64,000 bases of DNA from the NCBI GenBank assembly GCA_019326865.1, contig GCA_019326865.1_4101.1; one strand, given 5' to 3'. The stretch is from a phage. Position 1 is the stretch's first letter. Each line of letters starts with the position of its first letter. The notes under the pieces were generated by a model. That model was not told the origin of the DNA. It made no database searches and saw nothing but the letters and a program-made list of their open reading frames with translations. The position numbers were made by a program, and so were the translations under genes. Shown piece by piece: positions 6,783 to 57,044 of this stretch.

Positions 6783-6798
6783 CATTTTAAAAATATAA

Positions 6799-6824
6799 AT
6801 ATCTGTATGTTGAAGTACAGATAT
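6799..6824 (+). other. 9-bp-stem hairpin (atatctgta / tacagatat) in the protease-scaffold intergenic region
   Basis: Perfect inverted repeat immediately after a TATAAATA element at 6794-6801; no T-run follows. Confidence 0.4.
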
Positions 6825-6848
6825 TTCAGTACTTAAAGGAGAGAACGA

Positions 6849-7994: not shown

Positions 7995-8040
7995 TTCAGT
8001 TCTATAAATAATATCATACTGAAAAACGAATATAACATCT
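7995..8040 (+). promoter_or_regulatory. late-promoter-like element containing TATAAATA (8004-8011)
   Basis: ttcagttctataaataatatcatactgaaaaacgaatataacat; TATAAATA is the T4 late promoter consensus; ~45 nt upstream of the capsid gene. Confidence 0.5.
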
Positions 8041-8055
8041 TTAAGGAGATATATA

Positions 8056-9231
8056 ATGTCACAACTACTAAATGAATCCAAATGGGTAGCAGTAAAAGAG
8101 AAACTAGTTGAAGGTCTACAGGGTACTCGTAAGTCTGTAATGGAAACTGTTCTTGATAACCATCGTAAAGTTATGCTAACTGAATCCGCAACTTCTGGTG
8201 CAACTACCGCTGGTAATATCGCTACACTAAACAAAGTGATTCTACCAATTATGCGTCGTGTAATGCCAACTGTTATTGCTAACGAAATTATCGGTGTTCA
8301 GCCTATGACTGGTCCAGTCGGTCAAATTCACACCCTACGTGTACAATATGCTGATAATGCACCTGGTGTTATCGCTGGTGAAGAAATGCTTTCTCCATAC
8401 AAAATCGCTAAATCCTACTCTGGTGAACTAAATTCTGATAACAGCAATCCTCAAGCTGCTCCTACTAGCCAACTAGAAGGTACTATGGGTCGTCGCGTTA
8501 ACATCCGTATTCTACGTGAAACTGTTGAAGCGAAATCTCGTCGTCTATCTGCACGTTGGACTGTTGAATCTGCACAAGATGCTCAATCCCAACATGGTGT
8601 TGACGTTGAAGCAGAACTAATGGCTGCAATCGCTCAAGAAGTTACCGTAGAAATCGACCAAGAGCTACTAAGCCGTCTACGTGCACTACCAGGTGCTGCT
8701 GCTGTAACTTATGACCAATCTAAAGTTACTGGTGTTGCAACCTTCGTTGGTGATGAGCACGCTGCTCTAGCAACTCTAATTAACCGTCAAGCAAACGAAG
8801 TTGCTCGTCGTACTAAGCGTGGTGCTGCAAACTGGGCTGTTGTTTCCCCAACTGCACTAACCATTCTACAATCTGCTACTACTTCTAGCTTTGCACGTAC
8901 CACTGAAGGTACTTTCGAAGCACCAACTAACGTTAAGTTTGTAGGTACTCTAAACAGCACTATGCGTATTTTTGTTGATACTTATGCAAGTGATTCAGAA
9001 GATATTCTAATTGGTTATAAAGGTAATGCAGAAACTGATGCTGGTGTGTTTTATTGCCCATACATCCCACTAATGGCGTCCGGTACTGTAATGGACCCTA
9101 ACACTGGAGAACTCGTAACCACTTTCTTAACCAGATACGGGTACGTTCAGTTGACCGATAGCACCAGTTCACTAGGTAACGCTGCTGACTACTACAGCAA
9201 AATCGCTATCAAAAACGTTACTTTCATGTAA
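8056..9231 (+). CDS. gp23: major capsid protein (T4 gp23 family, compact 391 aa)
   Basis: IANEIIGVQPMTGPVGQIHTLRVQY vs T4 gp23 IAFDICGVQPMNSPTGQVFALRAVY; RILRETVEAKSRRLSA vs RIDKQVIEAKSRQLKA; ILIGYKGNAETDAGVFYCPYIPL vs FTVGYKGPNEMDAGIYYAPYVAL. Confidence 0.9.
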   Translation: MSQLLNESKWVAVKEKLVEGLQGTRKSVMETVLDNHRKVMLTESATSGATTAGNIATLNKVILPIMRRVMPTVIANEIIGVQPMTGPVGQIHTLRVQYADNAPGVIAGEEMLSPYKIAKSYSGELNSDNSNPQAAPTSQLEGTMGRRVNIRILRETVEAKSRRLSARWTVESAQDAQSQHGVDVEAELMAAIAQEVTVEIDQELLSRLRALPGAAAVTYDQSKVTGVATFVGDEHAALATLINRQANEVARRTKRGAANWAVVSPTALTILQSATTSSFARTTEGTFEAPTNVKFVGTLNSTMRIFVDTYASDSEDILIGYKGNAETDAGVFYCPYIPLMASGTVMDPNTGELVTTFLTRYGYVQLTDSTSSLGNAADYYSKIAIKNVTFM

Positions 9232-11351: not shown

Positions 11352-11390
11352 TAGATAAATATCTCCATATTAATGATGGAGATTGAATCT

Positions 11391-18088: not shown

Positions 18089-18820
18089 ATGGATCTACGC
18101 AACGTATTACGTGACCTTGTAAACACAACCAGTGGTATTGACTTCTCTTGTATTGCTGTAAGTAGTGAAGACCGTGGTGAAGGGCAACGTGTATATCTAG
18201 AAGCGTACACAGATGACCGAACTCTAGTGATGCGAGCATATACTAAAGAGGATGTTCCTGAAGTTCAGGGTCGCTTTGGGTTAGGAAATCTAGGTCTTCT
18301 TCAGGGTCTAATGTCTCTAAAAACATACAGTACTGAAGGAACAACAATCACGTCAAATGTCAAAGACGGATCTGTAAAAAGTCTAGCATTTAAATCTGAA
18401 GATGCAAGCACTACATTTATGGTACAAGCTGAAAAACTTATTCCAGTACAACCACGTTTTCATGAACAACCATATGACGTACAGGTTATTCCTAGTGCAG
18501 CAAAAGTTCAAGAACTAAAGAGTTTTTCTGGTGTATTTAAATCATTCAGTTCTCTCGTAACTCCGTATACTGATGGTGACACACTATACTTTCACGTTGG
18601 TGAGAAAAACAAAAGCAACCACGTTGGTTCACTAGCTTTTTCTAAAACTGATGGAGAATTGGGACTTGGATTTGGATATAATATTGATCGAGTACTTCAA
18701 GCACTATCTCGTGTCTCTAATGCTGAATCTGTATCACTTGGTATCACAAAAACTGGTATGTTAAATGTCACACTAGATACTGGAATTGCTGTATACAAAT
18801 TTTATGTAACTGGTTGCTAA
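18089..18820 (+). CDS. gp45: sliding clamp (T4 gp45-like), tentative
   Basis: N-terminus LRDLVNTTSGI resembles T4 gp45 LKNFATINSGI; similar length (243 vs 228 aa) and location next to the polymerase. Confidence 0.5.
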   Translation: MDLRNVLRDLVNTTSGIDFSCIAVSSEDRGEGQRVYLEAYTDDRTLVMRAYTKEDVPEVQGRFGLGNLGLLQGLMSLKTYSTEGTTITSNVKDGSVKSLAFKSEDASTTFMVQAEKLIPVQPRFHEQPYDVQVIPSAAKVQELKSFSGVFKSFSSLVTPYTDGDTLYFHVGEKNKSNHVGSLAFSKTDGELGLGFGYNIDRVLQALSRVSNAESVSLGITKTGMLNVTLDTGIAVYKFYVTGC

Positions 18821-18829
18821 TATAAATAA

Positions 18830-18850
18830 CGGGGAACAAGTTGTTCCCCG
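18830..18850 (+). terminator. hairpin after clamp gene (ggggaac / gttcccc)
   Basis: 7-bp GC-rich stem; downstream tract only moderately T-rich. Confidence 0.4.
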
Positions 18851-18885: not shown

Positions 18886-19092
18886 ATGCCATTATATACA
18901 TATCGTTGTGAAAAAGAAGAATGTAAACATAGTATGGAAAAAATTGTTAAAATTGCAAATCGTGATGAACCCCATGACTGCCCTAAATGTAATGGTAAAA
19001 AGACTATGAAGTTAGAAGTATTCACACCAGGTGATAAAGGTGCTAATCTTTATTTCCGTGGAAAATGGTTTGCAAATACTGGAGGTTACTGA
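18886..19092 (+). CDS. small Zn-ribbon protein (FmdB-like CxxC...CPxC)
   Basis: YTYRCEKEEC...DCPKCNG; 68 aa. Confidence 0.45.
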   Translation: MPLYTYRCEKEECKHSMEKIVKIANRDEPHDCPKCNGKKTMKLEVFTPGDKGANLYFRGKWFANTGGY

Positions 19093-19093
19093 T

Positions 19094-19393
19094 ATGAAAA
19101 TTAAAATGATTAATGATTACGTTCTTGTTCGTCAAATTGAAGCACAGAATAAAAGTTCTGGTGGTATTATTCTAGGGAATGTTGAGCCACCATGCATTGG
19201 TATGGTAATTTCCGTTGGTCCAGGTAAAGTTCTACCGAACGGACAACTAGCAGAGCATGATATTAAAGAAGGTGATATGGTTGTATTTGGACGTTCATCT
19301 TTGAACACCCCCCTAACTGAAGATCTTGGGGGTGGAGAAGACACATACTATGTAATGAAAATCGAAGAGATTTTTGGTAAGAAAAATGGCTAA
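19094..19393 (+). CDS. groES: GroES-family co-chaperonin (Hsp10 homolog)
   Basis: MKIKMINDYVLVRQIEAQNKSSGGIILG...GMVISVGPGKVLPNGQL...IKEGDMVVFGR...YYVMKIEEIFG follows the E. coli GroES pattern; RBS ggagg upstream of ATG 19094. Confidence 0.75.
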   Translation: MKIKMINDYVLVRQIEAQNKSSGGIILGNVEPPCIGMVISVGPGKVLPNGQLAEHDIKEGDMVVFGRSSLNTPLTEDLGGGEDTYYVMKIEEIFGKKNG

Positions 19394-20111
19394 AAATAAA
19401 TTTATACCATTTTGGATGATCCCTGCTCACTGGGGACTTTCTGGTAAGGCAAAAGAAATAGCCAAAGCATATTACTACAATGATGATTATGAAGCTGATA
19501 TGAAGATTGCAGAATTGACATATCTAACTCCATATGAAGTTGAAGTAGCACAATTGGATATCAAAAAGAAATATGGTGTAATAGAAGAGTTAGAATATCT
19601 AATTGCTATGCTAGATGTAGAATTGAAATATTCCAAAATCACTCGTGAACAGTATGATGTTAAAGTTCTTGATGCAAAATTGAGTACTGGTGCAATCACT
19701 GAAAAAGAATATGATATGGAAATCATCGAGCTAATGCCAGATGGTGATGAAAAAAGACTAAAGGCTATTGAATTTGCATATCGTTATGATGAAATCACAC
19801 AAAGTGAATATTCTAAGGAAATATACACACTTAGAAAAGAGCCTTGGATTGATTTGAATGTGGTTCTTGACCCTGAAACAAATGAAGTTGAGTTTGTGTT
19901 TGATTATAATGAATATTTCTGGAAAAAACTGAAAGCGGAAGGTCATCCAGGTAATGACGAAGAAGAAATTATCGATAATTTTGTTAGAGACTTAGGTCGC
20001 AAACTTGCTACAGATGATTTCAGTGATGATTATGACGCAAAGTTGGTGAGTGTGAACGAAGGATTAGACAAGCTACCTGGTTTACCTGAAGGGTTTCGTT
20101 CATATAGATAA
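19386..20111 (+). CDS. hypothetical protein
   Basis: ORF of ~240 aa; start ambiguous between 19374 and 19386. Confidence 0.45.
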   Translation: MAKNKFIPFWMIPAHWGLSGKAKEIAKAYYYNDDYEADMKIAELTYLTPYEVEVAQLDIKKKYGVIEELEYLIAMLDVELKYSKITREQYDVKVLDAKLSTGAITEKEYDMEIIELMPDGDEKRLKAIEFAYRYDEITQSEYSKEIYTLRKEPWIDLNVVLDPETNEVEFVFDYNEYFWKKLKAEGHPGNDEEEIIDNFVRDLGRKLATDDFSDDYDAKLVSVNEGLDKLPGLPEGFRSYR

Positions 20112-20117
20112 AATATA

Positions 20118-20148
20118 AAAAGGAGAGCGTGTGCTCTCCTTTTCTTTT
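20118..20148. terminator. bidirectional rho-independent terminator between convergent genes
   Basis: aggagagc-gtgt-gctctcct hairpin flanked by A-run upstream and T-run downstream. Confidence 0.7.
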
Positions 20149-20156
20149 GTAATATG

Positions 20157-20846
20157 TTAAACCAATGCTGGAAGGTATTGGAATAGTTTAATACCGAAAT
20201 CCCCTGCTGCATCAGCGGCCTGTGAACGTAGATAAACTTCAGTGACCCCATCTTTAGCAAGTAGTGGAACACCAGTTAGATCATCAATTAGTAGGCGACC
20301 TTCTTCATATTCAGTACTTGGAACGCCTTGTGGTGATTTTAGATCTTTGTTAAAAACACTAGCACGTTCAACTAGGAATGTGATAACAGACGCATCATCA
20401 ATACTAACTTTACCAGCACTAATAACACCATCTGGTGCGTTGGTGAAACCAGTAACTGGAAACACTTCACTACCATTTCCTGCAATGTTGGATGTTGCAA
20501 TAACAACTGCACGTTGTTGTACAACATCTACGATGCGTTTTACGTTAGTTTGTGCCGCATAGGATGCATTGTAATCTGATTCTAGTGATTCTAGAACGAA
20601 AGCAGAACCATCAACACGCTTGATACCTTTATCATTTAGGTATGCTAGAATTTCTTCTGGGATATCAGTGTTTAGAAAACGTTGTAAACCTACATAAGAG
20701 GAAACTGCTCCTGTTACAAGAACGTTCACGTCACCAAGTTTACTAATAGCAATAGATGCTAGGGCGTTAGTACCACAAAAGTAACCTAGAATACGCTCAA
20801 ATGAATACCCATTGATACGTTCAAAAGAAGTATTAGTATTTGACAT
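20157..20846 (-). CDS. hypothetical protein, tandem paralog A (possible virion structural protein)
   Basis: Shares QQRAVVIATSNIAG and RASVFNKDL with the neighbouring ORF 20862..21461. Confidence 0.55.
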   Translation of the reverse strand: MSNTNTSFERINGYSFERILGYFCGTNALASIAISKLGDVNVLVTGAVSSYVGLQRFLNTDIPEEILAYLNDKGIKRVDGSAFVLESLESDYNASYAAQTNVKRIVDVVQQRAVVIATSNIAGNGSEVFPVTGFTNAPDGVISAGKVSIDDASVITFLVERASVFNKDLKSPQGVPSTEYEEGRLLIDDLTGVPLLAKDGVTEVYLRSQAADAAGDFGIKLFQYLPALV

Positions 20847-20861
20847 AATATTACCTCTCTA

Positions 20862-21461
20862 TTATAGTTGAACTGGAAGAGCAGCACGTACTTTAATAGC
20901 TACAGCAGTAGATGCACCTGCATCACCAACACCATCAGTTCCTTGACTTACGAAAGTTTTAGTACGAAAAACTTTAGCTTGTGCAATAGATTTAGCTAGG
21001 TCAACAGTTGGATCAACTGGAGCAGGACATGCAGAACCTGGACGAACTTCTTGTTTATTAAATACGTCTTGACGTTCACAGATGAAAGTCAATGCAACAG
21101 AGTTAGCACCACCTTTAACATCAGTACCGCTAGTACCAAATGCAACTACGTTTGGGTTAGCATTTTTAAAATCTTCAGGAATAACAACTTCTGCATCAAG
21201 AGCAAGTAGTGAAGTCGTTACAAGAACAGCACGTTGCTGTAGTAGTTGAGTAACCATGAATAGGTTATATTGTGCATTGCTTAGTGCAGTTTGATATGCA
21301 TCAGCTTGAGCATCAGAACCATCGGACACAACTTTAGTAGTACCGATTTCAACATCAGTTGGTAGGTCGATTACGATGGTTACAAAACCGTTGTTGCCAC
21401 CCCACCATTCACGTGCAACACCAGACATACCATAGTTACGGTTAAAAGAATTAAGACTCAT
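20862..21461 (-). CDS. hypothetical protein, tandem paralog B (possible virion structural protein)
   Basis: QQRAVLVTTSLLAL and RQDVFNKQEV match paralog A; two TAAATAA-type elements lie upstream on the minus strand. Confidence 0.55.
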   Translation of the reverse strand: MSLNSFNRNYGMSGVAREWWGGNNGFVTIVIDLPTDVEIGTTKVVSDGSDAQADAYQTALSNAQYNLFMVTQLLQQRAVLVTTSLLALDAEVVIPEDFKNANPNVVAFGTSGTDVKGGANSVALTFICERQDVFNKQEVRPGSACPAPVDPTVDLAKSIAQAKVFRTKTFVSQGTDGVGDAGASTAVAIKVRAALPVQL

Positions 21462-21507
21462 GAAAATCTCCTTGTCGAATTTTGTGCAGGTTCATCCTGC
21501 TTAAAGT

Positions 21508-21584
21508 TATTTATCAAAAAATATTCCTAGCATTTAAATTTACTGGAATAATTAATGAATTTCTATGATATTATTTATCAAAAA
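21508..21584 (-). promoter_or_regulatory. two direct copies of tttttgataaataa (minus-strand sense), late-promoter-like
   Basis: Plus-strand ttatttatcaaaaa at 21508-21521 and 21571-21584; contains a TAAATAA core resembling T4 late TATAAATA. Confidence 0.4.
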
Positions 21585-27936
<6,352 letters not shown>

Positions 27937-33272: not shown

Positions 33273-34757
33273 ATGAAAACTTGTAAGTTAACCTTATTGG
33301 ATGAGGTGAATTGTAAATTTGAGGGACTTGATCCCTCAATTAGACAAAAGATGATTCGTGCAACTGAATATGTGTTACCATATGCAAAGTTCACACCAGC
33401 AGGACGTATTGGACGTTGGGATGGTAAAGTTCAGTTTATGAATTTAGGTGGAACAACTTATTATCATATGTTAGATAAGTTATTGCCTATTCTTGATGAA
33501 GCTAAGATTGACATTGAATTGGTAGATCATAGGGTAGATTATGGATTTAAATTTGACCCTATTGATGAAGATATTTTTAGTGATGTTGTATTCGGTGCAG
33601 GACACCACATGGAAGGTAAATCCATAAAACTACGTGAACATCAAGTTAATGCGGTTAATGCATGTTTGGCTAATCCACACGGATTACTATTGGCAGCTAC
33701 TGGTGCAGGTAAAACACTCATTACTGCTGCATTGTCAAAGAAAGTGCAAGAGTATGGACGTTCTGTTATAATAGTACCAAGTACTGACTTAGTACAACAA
33801 ACATATGATGACTATATTATGTGTGGGTTGGATACTGGTATGTTCTATGGTTCACAAAAAGATTTTGGTCACCAACATACTATTACAACGTGGCAATCAT
33901 TTAACTCTCTATGGAAGAAAACCAAGAAAGGTGAAATTGAATTAACTGAACAAGATGTTAATGATTTTATCGATGGAGTAGTTTGTGTTATCGTTGATGA
34001 GTGTCAAGGTGCAGGTGGTGACGCATTAGTTCAAGTACTATCTAAAGTTATGAACAACGTACCATTACGTTGGGGTCTTACTGGTACAATTCCGAAAGAT
34101 CCGGTTGTCGCCGCAAAAATCAAATGTAATGTTGGTGATGTTATATTTAAAATAACTGCAAAGGAATTACAAGATAAACAGATACTAAGTACATGTAATG
34201 TAAATTGCATAAAACTAAAAAGTAGTATGAAGTTTGCATCATATGCTGAAGAGTTGAAATACTTAGTAACTGACAGAGATAGAATGGCATATATAGCATC
34301 ATTGATATCTGCGTTATCTGAATCAGGAAACACTTTAGTTTTAGTAGATAGGCTTGAAGCGGGTGAGTTGTTATGTGAATTTTTAGGTATTCCCAAATCA
34401 GAATTTGTTCGTGGAGAAACTAAAAAGAAAGATCGAGAATCATCATATGGTGAAATTCGTTGGGCTGATAATAAAATACTTATTGCGACATACGGTGTTG
34501 CCAGTACTGGTATCAGTATTTCAAGGTTATACAATGTAGTATTGATTGAGCCAGGAAAAAGTTTTGTAAGAACTATACAATCAATCGGACGTGGATTACG
34601 CCGAGCAGAAGATAAAGACCATGTGGAAATATATGATATTAGTGGTTCTAATAAGTATAGTGCAAAACATTTACGTGAACGTTTAGCATATTATAAGGAA
34701 GCACAATATCCGCATAGTATAATAGATGTTAAAGATTGGGAAAACACAGCGGGATAA
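33273..34757 (+). CDS. uvsW: UvsW-like SF2 helicase
   Basis: Walker A ATGAGKT, motif II VDECQ; IIVPSTDL, ILIATYGVASTGISI and IQSIGRGLRR align with T4 UvsW IIVPTTAL, IIIVASYGVFSTGISV and LQTIGRVLRK. Confidence 0.8.
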   Translation: MKTCKLTLLDEVNCKFEGLDPSIRQKMIRATEYVLPYAKFTPAGRIGRWDGKVQFMNLGGTTYYHMLDKLLPILDEAKIDIELVDHRVDYGFKFDPIDEDIFSDVVFGAGHHMEGKSIKLREHQVNAVNACLANPHGLLLAATGAGKTLITAALSKKVQEYGRSVIIVPSTDLVQQTYDDYIMCGLDTGMFYGSQKDFGHQHTITTWQSFNSLWKKTKKGEIELTEQDVNDFIDGVVCVIVDECQGAGGDALVQVLSKVMNNVPLRWGLTGTIPKDPVVAAKIKCNVGDVIFKITAKELQDKQILSTCNVNCIKLKSSMKFASYAEELKYLVTDRDRMAYIASLISALSESGNTLVLVDRLEAGELLCEFLGIPKSEFVRGETKKKDRESSYGEIRWADNKILIATYGVASTGISISRLYNVVLIEPGKSFVRTIQSIGRGLRRAEDKDHVEIYDISGSNKYSAKHLRERLAYYKEAQYPHSIIDVKDWENTAG

Positions 34758-34769
34758 ACCCGCTGTTTG
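34746..34769 (+). terminator. hairpin acagcggg-ataaa-cccgctgt followed by ttgtg, overlapping the uvsW stop
   Basis: 8-bp GC-rich inverted repeat; a TGaTATAAT element (34770-34778) follows directly. Confidence 0.45.
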
Positions 34770-34812
34770 TGATATAATGTGTCATATGTAAACAACAAGG
34801 ATGTGGAATAAA

Positions 34813-35241
34813 ATGGAATTGAGATCTAGTATTGCTTTTGTCTGTGACCAAGAAACGTTAGAGGTTATGGATGTATTGTTGAATGATGATGGTATTATGG
34901 ATGACATGGTGTCTTCTCTTGACTATATTCCTGAACTAGAAACGGATGATACTAACGTATGGAGATGTAACATTGATGGCGATTCGTGGATTAATATCTA
35001 TGAATTACAAACACGAATTGATTCTAAGGTTGAATCATTGAAATATGATATCATCTATGCAAGTACTGATACAAAAACTTTTATTGATGTAGTAAGTCTA
35101 AGTGGTAATTTTGATTCATATCTTGATACTGATGTGGATAAAATTCAAGAGATGTGTGATACATACGGACTTGAATTTTATGGTGCAGAAGATTTGGATG
35201 ACGAAGACTATTACGATGATGAAGAAGAATCACAGTACTAA
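34813..35241 (+). CDS. hypothetical protein with acidic C-terminus
   Basis: RBS aagga; C-terminal DLDDEDYYDDEEESQY. Confidence 0.4.
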   Translation: MELRSSIAFVCDQETLEVMDVLLNDDGIMDDMVSSLDYIPELETDDTNVWRCNIDGDSWINIYELQTRIDSKVESLKYDIIYASTDTKTFIDVVSLSGNFDSYLDTDVDKIQEMCDTYGLEFYGAEDLDDEDYYDDEEESQY

Positions 35242-35250
35242 GGAGACGAT

Positions 35251-35748
35251 ATGAACGTATTAACACCAGAAAATACATCTTTTGATATGGATTTAGTAAC
35301 AGAACATATCCCTGAAGAAATGTATTGTGTTTTGGATTTAAGTCCAAATGGTGAATCTGATTTTTATTTTAGACATATTCTAAACACCGTATCATTTAAT
35401 AGTATTAGTGCTGATCTTCAAATTGGTGAAAAGATTATTCAAGTGCCTTTAGGATGGCAAATTATGTTAGGGGATGAAGAAACTGGTATGGTTGAGATGT
35501 GCACAATTGAAAACATTCTCAACATGAAAGAACCAAAAGCTTTTGTTTATAATCCTATCCGTTCGATGTATCCTAAGTTTGAGCCAGTAAAAGTACTACG
35601 TGTATTTGCTTTAACAACTAAGTGGCAAATTCCAATGCTACCGAAAAAGAATTTACTCTGTGTGCCGTTACATAGTGGTGAAAATCCACCATGTGTGTAC
35701 TTTGCAGATGAAAATGAAAAAATTCAAGATTTGTATCTAGGAGTATAA
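35251..35748 (+). CDS. hypothetical protein
   Basis: 165-aa ORF with RBS aaggaga. Confidence 0.45.
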   Translation: MNVLTPENTSFDMDLVTEHIPEEMYCVLDLSPNGESDFYFRHILNTVSFNSISADLQIGEKIIQVPLGWQIMLGDEETGMVEMCTIENILNMKEPKAFVYNPIRSMYPKFEPVKVLRVFALTTKWQIPMLPKKNLLCVPLHSGENPPCVYFADENEKIQDLYLGV

Positions 35749-35752
35749 AATA

Positions 35753-36595
35753 GTGTTTGATTTCAGTGATATTAAAAATAAGTCAGTCGATGATGATAAA
35801 CCAACACAGCAGTCTTTTTCTATTGCTGAATTTCTAAAACATATTGACCGTGCTGATTATAAGTTCTATAATGACATGACAGAAAAAGAACGAAAAGAGT
35901 TTACACCTTATACTGTTTTGCGATGGGTAAGCTCTTTGGATGATTCTCTTCAAGTTACATATCCAAGTAGTAAAGTTGAAAAAGTATTTGGTAAATGGAA
36001 AGCTGGTGGTAAGGAAACATTAACTGAACTAGTAACTGAATTGAAGTCTTCTGGGACTAATGTTTCATCAGTAACCAAGTACTGTCACGGTGACTATGAT
36101 TGGCGTATTAAATTTGCGGTTCAATCTAAAGATGCTGCACAAAAATTAATATCATCAATGACAGAATTTGGTGTAACTGGTTCTGAAATTGTGTCATTAG
36201 TAGATACTGAAGTTGTAAAATATCAACTTATTATGCTGAATGACATGGTTAATGATGGTTTTTGGGATATGAAAGAACATCCAGAATTAGTATATCAACT
36301 TATGTGCTCAGTGCATGATATGATTGGTGGACAAGAAATGCCCCGTAATTGGTTGAATTTTTCTAAAAATTTCAAAAAAGCAAACAATGAACTATTTGAA
36401 TTAATTAAAAGTTCACAACCTGATACTATTTCTACTCAAATGAATGAAGATGAATATAAAATTGTTTTATTACAGTATGATAAAAAATCATTTGAAACAT
36501 TTCTTGACAATAATGGTTTACAAGATAATGAAAAGAAATCTATGATGAAATTGTTTAAAGATGAATGTAAAAAATATGGAAAAGAAATCAAGTAA
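35753..36595 (+). CDS. hypothetical protein
   Basis: 280-aa ORF; no motif recognised. Confidence 0.45.
   Translation: MFDFSDIKNKSVDDDKPTQQSFSIAEFLKHIDRADYKFYNDMTEKERKEFTPYTVLRWVSSLDDSLQVTYPSSKVEKVFGKWKAGGKETLTELVTELKSSGTNVSSVTKYCHGDYDWRIKFAVQSKDAAQKLISSMTEFGVTGSEIVSLVDTEVVKYQLIMLNDMVNDGFWDMKEHPELVYQLMCSVHDMIGGQEMPRNWLNFSKNFKKANNELFELIKSSQPDTISTQMNEDEYKIVLLQYDKKSFETFLDNNGLQDNEKKSMMKLFKDECKKYGKEIK

Positions 36596-55641: not shown

Positions 55642-57044
<1,403 letters not shown>

Follow-up and report, generated by a model that had tools for sequence, protein, structure and literature searches.

Two tandem paralogous virion proteins of an Asteriusvirus jumbo phage as candidates for the outer lattice of the T=28 capsid

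Two adjacent minus-strand genes were analysed in a 64,000-nucleotide (nt) stretch of phage DNA (contig GCA_019326865.1_4101.1 of GenBank assembly GCA_019326865.1, hereafter the window), which by sequence comparison is an Asteriusvirus jumbo myovirus whose relatives have genomes of about 350 kb. Over a 4-kb stretch around the gene pair, Escherichia phage UE-S1 is 99.6% identical, and PBECO4, the 121Q-like phages, phAPEC6 and slurp01 show approximately 92% identity. The orthologues of the pair are shown to be abundant virion proteins in relatives. Based on the evidence below, we give an even chance to the reading that the two proteins together form the outer decoration (cement) lattice of the T=28 capsid. 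Earlier publications already cover the genes, the paralogy and the location in the virion, and the interpretation of the products as late structural proteins is not new.

The initial annotation had described two adjoining minus-strand open reading frames (ORFs) of 229 and 199 amino acids (aa), and its coordinates proved exact, with a gap of 15 nt between the two ORFs (Table 1). The short paralogue corresponds to UES1_566 of UE-S1, gp210 of phAPEC6, gp504 of PBECO4, 618 of 121Q, ORF107w of RaK2 and CBB_271, and the long paralogue to UES1_565 of UE-S1, gp211 of phAPEC6, gp505 of PBECO4, ORF106w of RaK2 and CBB_270; both window proteins are 100% identical to their UE-S1 counterparts. Pairwise BLASTP of the short against the long protein gave 35% identity over 80 aa (E 2e-9), and the sequence blocks that had been noticed as common to both ORFs are present and fall within this alignment. 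Although no family had been recognised at first, and Pfam indeed returned no match, a PHROG family labelled 'virion structural protein' (phrog_9326) does exist, and it was matched by the short protein with an E value of 2.6e-86 (profile positions 1-195 of 195) and by the long protein with 3.4e-84 (positions 2-195 of 195). An alignment of 35 sequences from both paralogue groups contained 13 invariant columns over the full length. The two ORFs are thus confirmed by sequence as true paralogues, beyond chance, and the alignments show that the long one has some 30 additional helical residues inserted ahead of the long helix.

Virion proteomics has been published for three relatives, and in each the orthologues were present. 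In purified phAPEC6 virions, the coverage by mass spectrometry (MS) was 69.8% for gp210 and 69.9% for gp211, and the capsid protein and the sheath reached 74.9% and 68.0%, respectively (PMC7247149). The window proteins are 95.5% and approximately 92% identical to those of phAPEC6, the latter value being obtained with PBECO4 as a proxy, which scores the same as phAPEC6 for the short paralogue. In RaK2, ORF106w and ORF107w were among the few labelled bands of the virion gel, where they were called abundant and 'two distantly related proteins', and they migrated at their predicted mass, indicating that they are not processed (PMC3622015). CBB_270 had 91.3% coverage, the highest of 55 virion proteins, and CBB_271 had 56.4% (PMC5259590). 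In RefSeq, the PBECO4 and 121Q genes are labelled 'virion structural protein'. Together with the ATAAATA late motif described below, these data bear out the initial view that the pair encodes late-expressed structural proteins, for which tail, neck and decoration roles had been considered. It is very improbable that the proteins are instead non-structural, that is, very highly expressed late products such as assembly chaperones that co-purify with virions. The phAPEC6 virion list does hold clearly non-structural proteins (SSB, a RecA-like protein, thymidylate synthase and a topoisomerase subunit), and GroES is encoded among the neighbouring genes, but these contaminants had coverages of 6-17%, against 70% for the orthologues of the pair (PMC7247149). 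Moreover, the result was obtained independently in three preparations, each from a different genus; in RaK2 the proteins were visible as gel bands, and in CBB one of them had the top coverage.

Codon bias was used as a proxy for expression, with the codon adaptation index (CAI) scored against the major capsid gene (8056-9231, phrog_138) and 54 window genes compared. The short gene had an effective number of codons (Nc) of 28.9, the lowest of the 54 and hence the strongest bias in the window, and its CAI was 0.757, compared with 0.764 for the capsid gene against itself. The long gene ranked fifth of 54. Since the other top-ranked genes encode SSB, a virion protein and the scaffold, codon bias tracks abundance here, and the capsid-like codon usage of the pair would fit high expression.

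The pair is maintained as a unit throughout the clade. In every relative examined the genes stand in tandem, short then long, with a gap of 13-19 nt in all cultured relatives, and they occupy the same syntenic slot, divergent from the RNase H gene and convergent with a unit encoding a 245-aa protein, GroES and a Zn-ribbon protein; the slot also occurs in Vibrio phage 2.275.O and in a metagenomic contig. Within each phage the short and long proteins share 25-29% identity, and both paralogues diverge between phages at equal rates. As the divergence is equal and the pair is kept in every relative, the duplication predates the clade and both copies would be needed; their retention in all relatives points to non-redundant partners. 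Vibrio phage 2.275.O has three tandem paralogues, the extra one being NVP2275O_488 (L006, positions 1135-1818, 227 aa), which is a true third paralogue by hhalign (98.4% probability against the family) and has its own copy of the promoter-hairpin-Shine-Dalgarno cassette described below. In metagenome contig L014 the pair is preceded by a 267-aa gene, which was considered as another third paralogue and rejected (hhalign probability 0.2%). The phrog_9326-type family is narrow: a profile search of a whole library of 1.84 billion proteins gave 43 clusters at 50% identity, so there is no wider family to hint at function.

The structures of both proteins were predicted by AlphaFold2 with family alignments. 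The short protein was modelled with a predicted local distance difference test score (pLDDT) of 84.4 and a predicted template modelling score (pTM) of 0.81, and the long protein with values of 80.4 and 0.79, respectively. Both models describe a two-layer alpha/beta sandwich with a helix of about 25 residues and five strands, and that of the long protein adds two helices (51-58 and 63-73). The N-terminal ~20 residues have a pLDDT below 50 in the short-protein model yet contain the invariant residues R8 and G11. No match to either protein was found in Pfam at E <= 10, and the 'hemagglutinin repeat' label of phAPEC6 gp211 was discarded on the same ground. A PDB profile search by sequence returned noise only (E >= 0.46), and Foldseek of the 229-aa model against PDB returned nothing at E <= 0.001. 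With the 199-aa model, Foldseek against BFVD recovered family members and weak, uninformative matches (TM score ~0.35) to proteins that are uncharacterised and belong to other large phages, for instance Atu_ph07. The phrog_9326 family has no Pfam model or solved structure, and the predicted fold of the pair was without a solved relative in these searches.

The RaK2 authors proposed the tail tube as the role of one member of the pair, based on size, abundance and predicted beta content, as no tube gene had been found in 2013 (PMC3622015). Sizes of 21-24 kDa are indeed tube-like and the proteins are abundant in virions, but we consider this assignment extremely unlikely. In phAPEC6 the sheath gene gp277c lies about 80 kb from the pair and has tube-family neighbours of its own: gp275c, gp274c and gp273c stand directly downstream of it in the T4 gene order and match phrog_4542 (E 5e-86 and 8e-80), phrog_13438 and the general tube family phrog_45. 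With tube-family genes beside the sheath gene, the tube is accounted for in its canonical place. The pair itself has no tube profile match in Pfam (E <= 10) or PHROG, and its predicted fold is not tube- or Hcp-like, and the assignment was therefore set aside. The three consecutive tube-PHROG genes gp273c-gp275c (L007, positions 33644-36307) encode proteins of 228, 258 and 364 aa, and the clade seems, from these profile matches, to carry a triplicated tube-like gene set; the MS coverage of gp275c was only 9% (PMC7247149).

Upstream of the pair, the TAAATAA-type elements that had been reported were recovered as two exact copies of TTGATAAATAA on the minus strand (21507-21517 and 21571-21581), which occurs nowhere else in the window. 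The T4-type late promoter class has a -10 element resembling TATAAATA ahead of late or structural genes, and such an element was found here twice, as GATAAATA. At the distal one, the 15-nt string ATAAATAATATCATA is the same as a string at 8004-8018, which lies upstream of the major capsid gene. ATAAATA is no commoner in the window than expected by chance, although its placement was not random: of 17 copies on the plus strand, nine have a start codon 19-64 nt downstream, with distances of 52 nt for the capsid gene and 54 nt for the scaffold gene, compared with 53 nt for the proximal copy of the pair, and genes of other virion proteins are also among those preceded by it. A scan for sigma-70 promoters found 7 where 7.0 were expected and was set aside as chance level. 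For CBB and GAP32, ATAAATA has been put forward as the putative late promoter, with 35 sites before structural genes, and a T4 gp55-like sigma factor was reported for CBB (PMC5259590). We aligned 12 upstream regions, from Asteriusvirus, RaK2, CBB, GAP32, XbC2, Eneladusvirus, Salmonella PHA46 and two genes of a Vibrio phage, and ATAAAT was invariant in all 12 (at least five genera plus the Vibrio phage). The pattern TTTGATAAATAAC-TTAAG, hairpin, CAAATT, AAGGAGAT, ATG was kept, with the proteins being only 35-55% identical. The late-promoter reading of the putative elements is supported by its agreement with the CBB/GAP32 motif and by this conservation across genera.

The plus strand carries almost all genes of the window, and the pair had been singled out as its only late-like minus-strand genes. 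The only other real minus-strand genes are 55642-56121 and 56319-56999, and no ATAAATA-type motif was found within 400 nt upstream of either, in agreement with that statement. The divergent RNase H/5'-3' exonuclease ORF on the plus strand is annotated in UE-S1 with 347 aa and a start at 21619, and in RaK2, CBB and GAP32 with 328 aa. The start at 21619 is probably too far upstream, the conserved protein beginning with MKKLYLL (~21676); with the latter start, the divergent intergenic region would be about 214 nt long and hold both late-promoter motifs.

The conserved hairpin between the proximal element and the short gene was accepted because of covariation only; its folding energy alone is not significant (z -1.4). 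Among 11 distinct sequences 100% of the alignment cells were paired, with compensatory changes at four of the five pairs: for example, GCAGG/CCTGC becomes GTAAG/CTTAC in RaK2 and GCCAG/CTGGC in the Vibrio phage. Metagenome contig L014 has a further variant, GGAAGC/GCTTCC. None of 500 shuffles reached the paired percentage, the compensatory-change counts or the covariation score of the hairpin, 24 of 500 reached its count of further pair types, and slid registers of the alignment were only 25-42% paired. Transcripts from T4 late promoters begin a few bases past the TATAAATA box, and by this analogy the hairpin is probably at or near the 5' end of the late mRNA, where it could stabilise the message. 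Hairpins of 7-8 bp also stand a few bases past other ATAAATA motifs on the plus strand, at 6795-6830 (before the scaffold gene), 11355-11385 (in the gap upstream of the 11740 gene) and 18822-18850 (before the Zn-ribbon/GroES unit). Late transcripts of this phage may generally carry such a hairpin at the 5' end, close to the promoter, and some of these hairpins could instead be terminators of the preceding gene.

Both Shine-Dalgarno sites are strong, and from its spacing the operon would be translationally close-coupled. The bidirectional terminator proposed to bound the pair was also located, and it is common to the pair and the convergent plus-strand unit (the 245-aa virion protein, GroES and Zn-ribbon genes). 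With two promoter-like motifs upstream and a terminator at the end, the pair would constitute one inverted transcription unit (Table 1).

Table 1. Coordinates of the gene pair and its putative regulatory elements in the window
Feature	Position	Strand	Remarks
Distal late-promoter-like element GATAAATA	21572-21579	-	Conserved in PBECO4; recognisable in RaK2 and CBB
Proximal late-promoter-like element GATAAATA	21508-21515	-	ATAAATA core starts 53 nt upstream of ATG
5-bp hairpin, GCAGG-loop-CCTGC	21486-21500	-	Begins after a 7-nt spacer 3' of the proximal ATAAATA
Shine-Dalgarno of short paralogue, AAGGAGA (GGAG 21468-21471)	21468-21472	-	GGAGAT invariant across relatives
Short paralogue, coding sequence	20862-21461	-	199 aa, 21.0 kDa, isoelectric point (pI) 4.8
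Shine-Dalgarno of long paralogue, GAGAGG	~20853-20857	-	Within the 15-nt intergenic gap
Long paralogue, coding sequence	20157-20846	-	229 aa, 24.5 kDa, pI 4.6
Bidirectional intrinsic terminator	20117-20144	both	12-bp stem, 5 G-C pairs, T-runs on both strands; annotated in UE-S1

In the low-resolution maps of phAPEC6 and 121Q, an elongated second-layer density forms a hexagonal network over the capsid protein, and its identity was explicitly left unassigned. This density touches its neighbour across local two-fold axes and is about equal to the capsid protein in copy number; in 121Q it appears as staggered zig-zag ridges across the local two-folds, 'possibly an independent decoration protein'. 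For this lattice the most economical candidates are the two proteins of the pair, as abundant, uncleaved, acidic and co-evolving paralogues whose flexible arms are conserved. Acidity (pI 4.6-4.8) and lack of cleavage would be less expected of a core or internal protein than of an external one that joins the shell once the prohead has matured, and the flexible conserved N-terminal arm is similar to the arms with which decoration proteins, lambda gpD among them, bind the capsid. A more specific version, to which we give somewhat less than even weight, is that the pair is a hetero-dimeric cement with a fold not in any solved structure, arranged as a hexagonal outer network with one pair per local two-fold, and needed to hold together or even to size the 350-kb jumbo capsid.

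In this proposal, two tandem T4-type late promoters, a 5' hairpin, strong ribosome sites with capsid-like codons and a bidirectional terminator would follow one another in a self-contained inverted late operon, suited to the mass production of two acidic paralogues of 21 and 24.5 kDa. Both products would end, uncleaved, as major virion components. The alpha/beta-sandwich body of each would sit on the shell, and the conserved N-terminal arm, predicted to be disordered, would clamp the capsid protein or the partner paralogue. A hetero-pair across a pseudo-two-fold axis would explain the staggered zig-zag ridges.

Alternatively, the pair could be internal head proteins, for instance the main building blocks of the radiation-sensitive inner body in the heads of 121Q and phAPEC6, which we regard as quite unlikely. 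This 91 x 18 nm structure is present in the heads and has no assigned composition, and if it were all protein, its volume would by our estimate need several hundred 45-kDa pairs, a demand that abundant proteins could meet. The inner-body proteins of phiKZ are also tandem paralogues, which speaks for this alternative, whereas the prohead protease typically cleaves the proteins that reside inside the heads of T4 and phiKZ. By comparison, the RaK2 orthologues run at their full predicted mass (PMC3622015). The pI of 4.6-4.8 is not DNA-neutralising, our sequence and fold searches gave no similarity to any solved phage internal protein, and the candidates preferred by the phAPEC6 authors are the RCC1-like proteins, of which the virion contains six.

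Another external part is somewhat easier to defend, though still unlikely: a dimer-shaped fibre anchor at the hexamer centre, the vertex dome, or a collar or sheath decoration anchoring the 'hairy' fibres. All of these densities are unassigned in phAPEC6, the hexamer-centre protein is dimeric in shape and would suit a hetero-pair at approximately 270-540 copies, and the clade is known for its capsid and tail hairs. On the other hand, the collar and tail decorations occur at only two tail levels (PMC7247149) and the dome at 11 vertices, and the tens of copies per virion that follow for collar, tail or dome are hard to square with capsid-like coverage and visible gel bands. In addition, the CBB and GAP32 orthologues are nearly identical, though the CBB authors suspect that GAP32 lacks tail whiskers (PMC5259590).

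Several points weigh against the outer-lattice reading. The assignment of the pair to this lattice is an inference to which we give an even chance, and MS coverage is only a rough proxy for copy number. High coverage was also found for phAPEC6 gp347 (14 kDa, 75%), gp306c (17 kDa, 66%) and gp253 (41 kDa, 66%), and the small proteins gp347 and gp306c compete for the same outer density, which, as the phAPEC6 authors allow, could also be an additional capsid-protein domain. Among known decoration or cement proteins none has a fold like the predicted one, which is weak evidence because that class is polyphyletic. The pair adjoins genes for replication and packaging; within the window some 12 kb separate it from the head-gene cluster, and this position is neutral at best. 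A literature search found no near-atomic map and no transcriptomics, start mapping or timing for any RaK2-like phage; the phiKp24 capsid was dismissed as a structural reference, being a single-protein capsid of an unrelated phage. Overall, the two most abundant unassigned virion proteins are most likely narrowed to the capsid surface, their precise place in the particle being a proposal.

The window also encodes the portal, protease, scaffold, DNA polymerase, SSB and large terminase, and several of its genes deserve comment. The convergent neighbour of the pair (19386-20111, plus strand; phrog_13349), with which it has the bidirectional terminator in common, encodes a very acidic protein of 241-245 aa that is labelled 'virion structural protein' in the RefSeq entries of PBECO4 and CBB. 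It is not among the proteins of the phAPEC6 and CBB virion MS tables, and as it is absent from both, the label may have been transferred and not measured. The Zn-ribbon gene (18886-19092, plus strand; Pfam Zn_ribbon_8) and the GroES gene (19031-19393, plus strand) overlap in the mechanical ORF list, and the annotated length of GroES differs by its start: 300 nt in phAPEC6, 324 nt in UE-S1 and 336 nt in PBECO4. Between the DNA polymerase gene and the GroES unit, 18089-18820 (plus strand) encodes a 243-aa protein of phrog_12062 without a match in Pfam and PDB sequence searches, whose phAPEC6 orthologue gp215c is present in virions at 26% coverage (PMC7247149). Its size and location might suggest a divergent sliding clamp, an idea that no test run supports; the CBB authors reported the clamp as missing (PMC5259590). 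The large terminase gene (23855-26512, plus strand; 885 aa) has a LAGLIDADG homing-endonuclease intein inserted before the Terminase_6N domain, matching Pfam LAGLIDADG_3 and Hom_end, with a weak match to Intein_splicing below threshold. The long form is also found in UE-S1, the RaK2 gene is likewise long (~889 aa), and the terminase of PBECO4 and phAPEC6 is an uninterrupted 545 aa.

RaK2-like jumbo phages (121Q, PBECO4, phAPEC6, RaK2, K64-1, CBB and GAP32) serve as models and therapy candidates, and their T=28 capsids have unassigned major components. Our analysis does not overturn the current understanding. It adds the exclusion of the tail tube, which removes the pair from the role suggested in the RaK2 literature (PMC3622015), the description of a fold without a solved relative, a conserved cassette of late promoter, 5' hairpin and Shine-Dalgarno site, and a specific, testable assignment to the capsid lattice. 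Structural groups gain a concrete pair of models to fit into 10-A and future near-atomic maps, and the cassette is a ready-made strong late-expression module for engineering these phages. If the cement lattice were true, it would offer a natural display platform, with approximately 800-1,600 sites on each particle, and a way to study what stabilises very large HK97-fold shells, and it would be an unusual decoration lattice built from two diverged copies of one protein.

Compared with the T4-type late promoter TATAAATA, the element GATAAATA matches at seven of eight positions, with ATAAATA as the core. As in T4, this core lies upstream of head genes, 36-64 nt from their start codons; unlike in T4, the first base is G and not T, the element is followed after 7 nt by a conserved hairpin, and homologues of gp33 or gp45 are not reported in the clade (PMC5259590). 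As members of the phrog_9326 or RaK2 ORF106w-ORF107w family (Asteriusvirus, Alcyoneusvirus, Eneladusvirus and Mimasvirus), the two proteins differ in nothing material from their relatives. They are like the myovirus tail tube (T4 gp19; phrog_45 and phrog_4542) in size and probable high copy number and differ from it in predicted fold and profile. The closest likeness in character is with decoration and cement proteins such as T4 Soc, lambda gpD and the cement proteins of phiKZ and GP4: the pair is small, abundant, probably late-made, uncleaved and acidic and has a flexible but conserved terminal arm. T4 soc, too, is encoded as a separate late unit apart from the core head genes. The pair differs from these proteins in having no sequence or fold similarity to any of them in the searches run, and in consisting of two paralogues where known decoration systems use one protein.

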